From IMG/VR virus record IMGVR_UViG_3300043409_000956, positions 29,093 through 93,092 of that record: a stretch of 64,000 nt of DNA; one strand, 5' to 3'. The position numbers and the translations under genes were made by a program. Below are positions 59,516-61,246 of this stretch, piece by piece. The DNA is from a virus. The first letter of the stretch is position 1. The number at the start of each line of letters is the position of its first letter. The notes under the pieces were generated by a model, which did not search any database, was not told the origin of the DNA, and worked only from the letters and a program-made list of their open reading frames with translations.

Positions 59516-61246
59516 TTATTTCTTACGAGCCTTTGCTCTACCAGCCTTCATGTTGGCCAACCAGTGTGCCATGCGTTGCTTTTCACCTGATGAATTCTTT
59601 GCTGTCTTGCGTAATGAACTTACACTGGCCTTGGTATTGACACCTGAGCGTTTGGCCAATCCTTTACGTCCGGGATTTTTACCATCAGCAAAGTTTTCGT
59701 TTAATCCAAATCCATCCCGAACAGCATTCATTAGTTCGCTCACACTGGCTTCTGTGGTTGGAAGTGTATCTTGTTCGCCAATATGCGGGTCGCCTTCTTC
59801 AACAGTACCCAACGCATAAGTGAACATACTGTCACCTTCATTGTCAATGATAACAATATAGTATTCATCAGTCATTGCGCCACGAGTCGTGAATATAAAA
59901 GATCCATCGTCTTTACGCTGGCCTTTCCACCCCATGGCTCTCATTGCGCTGTTGATTTTATTCACAACTTCTGGCCAAGGTAACATATTGCCTAATGAGA
60001 AGCCTTCCGCCACACCCGGTGTATGTGTGGGTTGTGTCAATTGAGAGAACTCACGCCTGGCATGTTGTAGGGCATCAACTGCATGAGTTGATGACATTGC
60101 CTTCTTTCTTTTGTCAGTCTTTTTCCATATGACCGCGGCTTGACCATTGTCAATACTTTGTATTTGACCTATCTGCCATGGATTGTCTGGATGTCGTACC
60201 CAGTCGCCGCGATAGACGCCTTCCGTCATGCCTTGTAGATTCTTCTTGGCATATGATAGTTGTATTTTAGGAATCTGTAAGTTTAATCCTGGTGGTGGCC
60301 AGGTGGCCATCTGTGGGTGTGGCGCCGGGTCCAATGGTGGTGGTTCTCCGGGTCTTGGTTGATTACTTGCTTTCCATTGCTTCTCTGCTGTAAGATAATC
60401 TTGATACTGCTGGTTATATGCTTGTTGGGCCTGAGTAAATATGGCCTGATATGCGTCCATTACTTGAATTATATAATTAAAGTAAGTGGCACTCACTTTG
60501 AATTCTTGTGGATTTGCCGTTGCCCATTTGTTTATATCATCTCTGAAATTGTCGATTATTCCATTTGCGTACGATGTAACAAAAGTTTCTCTCTCGCCTG
60601 GCGGTTCATAGTATATGCTTTTTTGTAAATGTCCTAAATAACCTTGTAATCGTGCAGGAATACTTTCCAAGTAACCCTCAAGGCTACCATCATGTTGTCC
60701 ACCTTGGGTGGCCCCTGTTCCGTGCTGTGTTGAAAAATCTTTGTAATACTCATCATTCTGTATACCAATAACTGAGTTAGTTCCGGCGACACCGTGAAAC
60801 CCCACATTCATTTGTTTAAAGGCTGTGTCTATGGCCGTACCGCGGTCGCCTTTGTAGTATTGGGCTTTAATGCCATTGGGAACACTACTACCTTCGGGTG
60901 CCAATACAATAGCACGACCCAAGTTTATTTCGCCTTCGTTGTTGAATCTATACCAGGTGTCTTCTGCTCTAGCACCGGCGGCTTGATCTCTTGGCATCTC
61001 TGCAGGATTTGCAATGATCACATACTTACCGGGAAATTTACCCATATTATGATCGCCCACCATGCTATTAACAGTGAAGTGTAGGGTGTTTCTCTGACTA
61101 TGACCGTTAAACCTAGCGATTGCAGTCAATGATCCATCACCATTGGCCTGTATGTTATCCAACCCATCAACAACTCTGACTAATCTATAACCACCGGCTG
61201 GTGCTTCAGTAAGAGTAGATTCTACAATGATGTCTTTGATTTTCAC
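59516..61246 (-). CDS. multi-module probable head polyprotein with GMTEG/GVAEG/LNE linkers
   Basis: MKIKDIIVE leader; linkers at 60219-60235 and 60003-60019; basic C-terminal NFADGK module. Confidence 0.75.
   Translation of the reverse strand: MKIKDIIVESTLTEAPAGGYRLVRVVDGLDNIQANGDGSLTAIARFNGHSQRNTLHFTVNSMVGDHNMGKFPGKYVIIANPAEMPRDQAAGARAEDTWYRFNNEGEINLGRAIVLAPEGSSVPNGIKAQYYKGDRGTAIDTAFKQMNVGFHGVAGTNSVIGIQNDEYYKDFSTQHGTGATQGGQHDGSLEGYLESIPARLQGYLGHLQKSIYYEPPGERETFVTSYANGIIDNFRDDINKWATANPQEFKVSATYFNYIIQVMDAYQAIFTQAQQAYNQQYQDYLTAEKQWKASNQPRPGEPPPLDPAPHPQMATWPPPGLNLQIPKIQLSYAKKNLQGMTEGVYRGDWVRHPDNPWQIGQIQSIDNGQAAVIWKKTDKRKKAMSSTHAVDALQHARREFSQLTQPTHTPGVAEGFSLGNMLPWPEVVNKINSAMRAMGWKGQRKDDGSFIFTTRGAMTDEYYIVIIDNEGDSMFTYALGTVEEGDPHIGEQDTLPTTEASVSELMNAVRDGFGLNENFADGKNPGRKGLAKRSGVNTKASVSSLRKTAKNSSGEKQRMAHWLANMKAGRAKARKK

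Follow-up and report, generated by a model that had tools for sequence, protein, structure and literature searches.

Four modules behind a T4-like leader in a giant phage open reading frame: a putative capsid-targeted cargo polyprotein with interchangeable joints

Alt of phage T4 is a packaged ADP-ribosyltransferase. The capsid targeting sequence of T4 reads MKTYQEFIAE (PMC8442874); for packaging, ten N-terminal residues of IPIII are enough, and gp21 cuts after L/I-X-E (PMC9026906). Phages of the phiKZ type have proteases that cut after S/A-X-E (PMC5694885). We analyzed a 64,000-nucleotide (nt) stretch of the IMG/VR virus record IMGVR_UViG_3300043409_000956 (positions 29,093 to 93,092 of that record; this whole stretch is called the window, and coordinates are given in its numbering) and studied B576, a minus-strand open reading frame (ORF) in which a T4-like leader is followed by four modules joined through short linkers. 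We propose, with a probability of about 0.6, that B576 and the ORFs B253 and B665, with which it would be co-transcribed, encode capsid-targeted cargo polyproteins of an uncultured giant lake phage whose head would be of the T4 type, and that the prohead protease would cut them after Glu. The features of B576 are as follows, with pI denoting the isoelectric point and a slash in a peptide marking the position after Glu.

59516 to 61246, minus strand: B576, a single ORF of 576 residues whose GTG start overlaps the upstream stop codon (GTGA)
61205 to 61246, minus strand: leader MKIKDIIVES-TLTE, residues 1-14, with two tandem [IL]xE sites, capsid-targeting-like
Residues 15-342 of B576, minus strand: module B1, 328 residues
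60695 to 61204, minus strand: B1-N, the beta-rich domain of B1, from an uncatalogued family
60221 to 60694, minus strand: B1-C, a helical bundle (about 60365 to 60682) and a Pro-rich tail that ends in linker 1
60218 to 60232, minus strand: linker 1, (Q)GMTEG, predicted cut MTE/G
60005 to 60220, minus strand: module B2, residues 343-414, a 72-residue DUF3553/SH3-like module, pI 9.7
60002 to 60016, minus strand: linker 2, (P)GVAEG, whose core GGTGTGGCGGAAGG is codon-locked
59696 to 60004, minus strand: module B3, residues 415-517, a 103-residue acidic module, pI 4.3, ending in GLNE
59516 to 59695, minus strand: module B4, residues 518-576, a 59-residue very basic module, pI 12.0, plus the stop codon

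An initial annotation, made from the letters of the window, had described this locus as a leader, a domain of ~330 residues, QGMTEG, an SH3/KOW-like module, PGVAEG, an acidic module and, after LNE, a basic module. The ORF and the module borders bore this layout out, and the labels acidic and basic fit the pI values of B3 and B4. Sites of the form [LIVM]xE lie at residues 7-9 (IVE/S), 12-14 (LTE/A), 340-342 (MTE/G), 412-414 (VAE/G) and 515-517 (LNE/N), and there is none within residues 15-339. In the proposed mechanism, a leader of 9 to 14 residues would act like the T4 capsid targeting sequence and carry the protein into the prohead core, where a T4-type prohead serine protease (Peptidase_S77) would cut at these five sites. 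The products would be an effector of about 36 kDa that is ADP-ribosyltransferase (ART)-like and carries a helical tail; a small SH3-like protein; an acidic protein; and the very basic 59-residue protein. The freed modules would remain inside the head and pass into the host together with the DNA. We infer the packaging, cleavage and injection of the modules, cleavage in particular from the fit to the motif, from the Glu that always stands ahead of a module and from the analogy with T4.

Like T4 IPI, IPII, IPIII and Alt (PMC9026906, PMC8442874, PMC5694885), B576 has a leader that ends in hydrophobic-x-Glu, and some relatives of its phage encode a T4-type protease. The very basic, small B4 recalls the 'highly basic' internal proteins of T4 and the possibly ART-like B1 recalls Alt, and here too the set of cargo is hypervariable between relatives. 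In T4, however, each cargo protein is a separate gene with one cut beside the leader, whereas the B576 system chains up to four or more unrelated modules in frame, with an interchangeable leader and linker and with codon-locked linker DNA. Polyvalent proteins of conjugative elements and phages (PMC5512222) likewise gather many unrelated conflict-type domains (ParB, GNAT, nucleotidyltransferase, ART-like) into a single polypeptide that a mobile element encodes and that presumably travels along with its DNA. B576 with its four unrelated modules also has two or more unrelated effector-type domains per polypeptide, but the signature LPD, MPTase-PolyVal and ArdC-N domains were absent from B576 and occurred only in distant relatives of B1. 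For polyvalent proteins, release by embedded metallopeptidases has been proposed, in a paper where the word 'linker' does not occur (PMC5512222), while the B576 modules would be released by the head protease, which would cut at one uniform kind of site. In the phiKZ-like phages SPN3US and 201phi2-1 (PMC5694885, PMC10052503), a gp21-related protease cuts a protein in several places, after the Glu of A/S-X-E. In these phages the extra cuts break up the propeptides of single proteins, and the release of several unrelated folded modules is not reported (PMC5694885, PMC10052503). The mobile PeSL cassettes through which modules are shuffled in T4-type genomes (PMC2839356, PMC4122927) resemble the B576 joints in that short conserved DNA motifs at module borders would serve as swap points within hyperplastic regions. 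PeSLs, however, are intergenic regulatory elements, consist of an early promoter and a stem-loop terminator and move whole genes, whereas the B576 joints are in-frame coding linkers with a putative protease site in the peptide. The literature searched contained no account of cargo polyproteins that a prohead protease cuts at one uniform linker.

A homologue survey of B576 identified 154 homologues, of which 120 were listed. All 120 are mosaics that share one or few of the four B576 modules at 45-99% identity, with ParB, DUF6934, cytidylyltransferase-like, nucleotidyltransferase, GNAT, zeta-toxin/AAA_33, deaminase and sigma-70 region 4 domains as partners. Alignment ends internal to the subject proteins gathered at B576 residues 336-343, 411-418 and 514-518. 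The modules recur separately and combined with other domains, with similarity breaking at the joints. Three loci (L010-L012) carry B2 (94-98% nucleotide identity) joined straight to B4 and read ..THTPGMAE/NFADGK, where B576 reads ..THTPGVAE/G-B3-..GLNE/NFADGK. Since B3 is cleanly missing there, the B3 unit begins right behind one Glu and ends with the next. At another locus (L005), B1 is followed by PQGVAEG and then by a different module. As an independent check at the DNA level, we used Logan contigs from lake metagenomes of four studies. These contigs diverged from the window at 59698, the Glu codon ahead of B4; at 60002-60004, the end of GVAEG, with an identical alternative continuation in three studies; at 60219-60221, the end of GMTEG, after which one contig ran directly into the start of B4; and at 61609-61614, within KKLTE/G between two ParB modules, where one contig had a 424-nt insert. 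A low-depth lake contig (run X4) joined the first ParB module (61914) to the middle of B4 (59628) through 19 unrelated letters, which may be another arrangement or an assembly error. All the relatives come from metagenomic contigs, and a mosaic pattern of this kind could be produced by assemblies that are chimeric at a short repeat. We give this explanation hardly any credence, since the repeat of 14 nt is below usual assembly k-mers, the junction at 60002-60004 recurs in the contigs of three studies, all the ORFs are in frame, and the architectures recur in IMG/VR, ENA, JGI and Logan.

B576 and B253 have identical first ten residues, MKIKDIIVES, and the leader of A162, a gene of another locus of the window (locus A, described below), is similar. 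The N-termini of the homologues fit M[KR]xx[DE][FIL][ILV]xE, as in MRAKEFIVET and MKINQVLVES. A loose form of this pattern matched only 4 of the 467 ORFs of the contig: B576, B253, A162 and a 95-residue ORF (45109 to 45396, plus strand), which starts MSRPKPTVLVEH and probably matches by chance. Where B1 stands internally in fused relatives, its leader is replaced by ..KQGVAES-SLNE/APAGGY, ..QDVTES-NLNE/A or ..ALTES-SLNE/A. DUF6934 modules behave in the same way, with ..LSE/AFDQP or ..ITE/AFDQP ahead of internal copies and MKITEIISE/AFDQP at the N-terminus. Single-module B4 genes have the leader placed directly on B4 (MRAKEFITE/NFADGK and MRINELFE/NFADGK), and this combination of a leader with a small basic protein is the format of the T4 internal proteins. 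Among 45 distinct contexts upstream of B4 (NFADGK), P1 was Glu in all 45 and P3 was V, L, M or I in 36, while P2 was variable; joints without locked DNA were still hydrophobic-x-Glu (LNE, IAE, VWE). Judged from these sequences, leader and linker are the same device, interchangeable at one position.

The same observations bear on whether B576 would be packaged and left uncut. In that case it would be a polyvalent protein that perhaps loses its leader, its four domains would remain one polypeptide, and the linkers would be flexible conserved spacers. Phage and plasmid polyvalent proteins are often delivered whole, such as the N4 virion RNA polymerase and ArdC (PMC5512222), relatives of B1 are found in polyvalent proteins, and the V or M at P3 of the linkers would also suit an uncut protein. 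We nevertheless consider it unlikely, because leader and linker substitute for each other at the same position, every module is also known as a single-module gene with its own leader, and the Glu is invariant right before the modules, with double sites such as GVAEG-SLNE.

The linkers were next compared as DNA with those of locus A.

7891 to 10512, plus strand: locus A polyprotein, with the same linkers at 8410, 9106, 9454, 9769 and 9979

The 14-nt core GGTGTGGCGGAAGG has four exact copies on the 93-kb contig, each of them in frame as GVAEG: three on the plus strand in the locus A ORF (9454, 9769 and 9979) and one on the minus strand in B576 (60002-60015). The reversed core, used as a control, had no copy, and the estimated chance expectation was about 0.001. 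A relaxed linker peptide pattern had ten matches on the contig, of which seven fell within B576 and the locus A ORF. The initial annotation had claimed the same linker DNA at both loci; the DNA of PGVAEG is indeed identical, but that of QGMTEG, GGCATGACGGAAGGC, merely resembles the copy at 8410, GGCATGGCCGAAGGT. The identical PGVAEG DNA at loci 50 kb apart on opposite strands supports the further claim that one architecture is used at distant loci. In 42 distinct linkers of related loci, GVAEG was written with GGT in 93%, GTG in 83%, GCG in 90% and GAA in 90% of cases, against a background use of 39%, 22%, 8% and 81%, respectively. In the same genes, B4 was 92-100% identical as protein and only about 80% identical as DNA, with the differences mostly at third positions, indicating that the linker is kept at the nucleotide level and B4 at the protein level. 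The codon lock suggests that the linker DNA may serve as an in-frame swap point for modules; it may also have a translational or RNA-level role.

If the linker were chiefly a DNA recombination joint or a nucleic-acid signal, the proteins could be ordinary cytoplasmic early proteins that are neither packaged nor cut. This would agree with the codon lock next to a B4 whose DNA drifts to about 80% and with breakpoints that fall in the linker, but it would leave unexplained the T4-like leader, the leader-bearing virion proteins of phage PA5oct (see below) and the hydrophobic-x-Glu joints that lack locked DNA. A recombination joint is also compatible with a protease site rather than exclusive of it, and as the whole explanation we find it improbable.

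A BLAST comparison of the modules of locus A with those of the B576 locus gave no significant similarity, so within this genome the two loci share linkers but not modules. Related viral contigs carry modules of both. One of them (L048) has an ORF in which a GNAT module of the locus A family (51%) directly precedes B4 (92%); in another (L053), a single ORF combines GNAT, DUF6934 and B4, and homologues of A1 (56%) and A3 (75%) come after it. Elsewhere, A210 (43%) and A1 (80%) are followed by a polyprotein ending in B4 (93%; L041), or B3, A162, A7 and B4 are consecutive (L015). Homologues of A162 adjoin B4-bearing ORFs in about 30 loci, and the locus A genes A162, A1, A3, A7 and A210 occur in co-directional clusters with B576-locus modules in related phages. 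The initial annotation had asked for such co-occurrence, and the clusters and ORFs shared in related viral contigs contradict the notion that modules never exchange between the loci.

Peptidase_S77 was present in three of five large related contigs that bear modules of B576. One of these loci (L088) has the T4 order of portal, acidic core protein, protease, scaffold and major capsid protein. Its scaffold has 6.35 [LIVM]xE sites per 100 residues, compared to 1.39 in ordinary ORFs of the study contig, and its capsid protein has four such sites within the first 42 residues (propeptide). This capsid protein is 66% identical to that of the Pseudomonas jumbo phage PA5oct, the closest cultured relative. 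A degenerate form of the leader DNA pattern had four matches in PA5oct. Two of these, gp246 (GTG start, VKIKDILVES) and gp333 (MKINDIITE, 73 residues, lying between portal and protease), bear annotations as virion proteins found through tandem mass spectrometry with electrospray ionization (ESI-MS/MS), while gp213 and gp075 were undetected in virions. The two closest copies of the B576 leader in the cultured relative are thus in virions, although the numbers are small. PA5oct positions 179881-181020 (L093) include a second ORF annotated 'head maturation protease', gp212, which was found by ESI-MS/MS; it adjoins gp213, whose leader MKIKEIILE starts five codons inside the annotated start.

Several observations weigh against cargo polyproteins cut by a head protease. 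A T4-type prohead protease gene was not found on the contig itself, which is a 26%-complete fragment. The PA5oct virion has 93 proteins from 461 coding regions (PMC7318152), and just two of the four leader-pattern ORFs being in virions, relative to this baseline of 20%, is a comparison of small numbers. P3 of the main linkers is V or M and not the canonical L/I of T4 gp21, and the linker Glu could be conserved for non-proteolytic reasons. Three extra [LIVM]xE sites lie in the tail of B3 (482, 489 and 502), and the depletion of such sites in the core of B1 is marginal and not significant (P = 0.06). Finally, the T4-type late promoter TATAAATA has no copy in the 64-kb window, compared to a mean of 3.3 in shuffles; the absence of this octamer indicates that the late promoters of the phage are probably unlike those of T4.

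If cleavage and packaging hold true, tailed phages would have a polyprotein strategy for filling the capsid with interchangeable effectors. The T4 model of internal proteins would thereby be extended, giant phages would have a known way to diversify their first-strike proteins, and leader and linker would offer a natural, portable tag with which foreign proteins could be packaged. PA5oct, with its existing virion mass-spectrometry data, is a cultured system in which the cleavage rule can be tested directly.

The nature of the modules was examined by profile and structure searches. A search of 1.8 billion representative proteins gave 123 relatives of B1. Those that are distant form the N-terminal domain in proteins of plasmid-type elements of Burkholderiales, such as an LPD7-domain protein of Azohydromonas and a zincin-like metallopeptidase protein of Cupriavidus, and the domains found alongside them are LPD7, MPTase-PolyVal, ArdC-N, DUF5710, FtsK-gamma, KfrB and GYF_2, partners characteristic of polyvalent proteins (PMC5512222). 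In an 86-member alignment of the B1 family, 11 members have a C-terminal GYF_2 and 4 have KfrB, indicating that the N-domain has several alternative partners outside phages. AlphaFold models of B1 were confident (pLDDT 94) and had a beta-rich domain of ~170 residues followed by a helical bundle and then by a Pro-rich tail. A wide search with VIA-align using B1-N gave DarT1 (8baq, Z 5.8, root mean square deviation 3.7, 115 aligned) and Tpt1 (7yw4, Z 5.2), then CopC (Z 4.7) and DarT (Z 4.6), followed by TreTu, AvrPphF, Scabin, heat-labile toxin, SpvB and exotoxin A. ART-fold proteins made up about two-thirds of the top 30 rows, at low scores that reached Z 5 for two chains only. The conserved residues of B1-N are R10, R38, T40, H42, N46, H52, D82 and W84 (domain numbering). 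Of these, the first strand carries R10 and the next major strand T40/H42, and the invariant D82 stands just before a strand, an order compatible with the ART triad, which is R-S-E or H-Y-E and occupies strands 1, 2 and 5.

Other searches gave no such match. No Pfam ART family matched any of the 86 B1-family members at E-values up to 1, and no Pfam family of any kind matched their N-domain. The B1 profile searched against PDB sequences gave coiled-coil noise only and no ART, Foldseek against PDB and BFVD gave nothing for B1 or B1-N, and the whole-B1 model in the VIA wide search gave only generic helical-bundle matches. Protein-atlas leads to PA14 for B1-N were weak (score 0.78) and were dismissed. 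On the models and the residue pattern, we put the chance that B1 is a divergent ART-like effector at about even, and the B1 family would then be a candidate new NAD-using effector.

For B2, the initial label SH3/KOW-like stood in part: the module alone scored 23.7 bits to Pfam DUF3553 (cut-off 20.3) and 20.1 bits within the whole protein, and the match to SH3 is weak. B1, B3 and B4 had no match in Pfam, PHROGs or NCBIfam, and B576 had none by tblastn in 50,697 GenBank phage records. At the loci checked, no module followed B4 in its ORF and Glu invariably preceded it, and in the protein atlas B4 fell into viral hypothetical clusters and no others; it is a candidate for an internal protein associated with DNA. 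Taken further, a single element could be both the capsid-targeting and protease-release site and the codon-locked recombination joint, so that modules would be movable, loaded, cut and delivered, with a cargo that includes an uncatalogued ART-like family shared with plasmid polyvalent proteins. We offer this wider proposal tentatively and regard it as less probable than its opposite.

Downstream of B576, a DegT-like aminotransferase gene (58396-59514, plus strand) is convergent with it, and the two stop codons are one base apart (59512-59518), leaving no space for a terminator between the genes. Upstream, the following features were identified.

61243 to 62004, minus strand: B253, with the same leader and two ParB-like modules joined at KKLTE/G (61609-61620)
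62001 to 64000, minus strand, continuing past the contig end: B665, with DUF6934 modules, each starting ..[LI][ST]E/AFDQP, and a C-terminal domain
61218 to 61263, minus strand: gene-junction cassette, copy 1, 46 nt, comprising the B253 end (..KRSQQ-stop), an AAGGAG ribosome-binding site, the GTG start and the leader
61976 to 62021, minus strand: gene-junction cassette, copy 2 (1 mismatch), comprising the B665 end, the ribosome-binding site, the GTG start and the B253 leader

At both junctions the 46-nt cassette consists of ..KR[IS]QQ-stop, AAGGAG, a GTG overlapping the stop codon (GTGA) and the leader, with zero intergenic space. It was absent from 80 related loci when up to 8 mismatches were allowed, and it can be seen as an intergenic analogue of PeSL. 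In B665, two DUF6934-type units are preceded by ..[LI][ST]E/AFDQP, which is a second type of linker unlike GVAEG.

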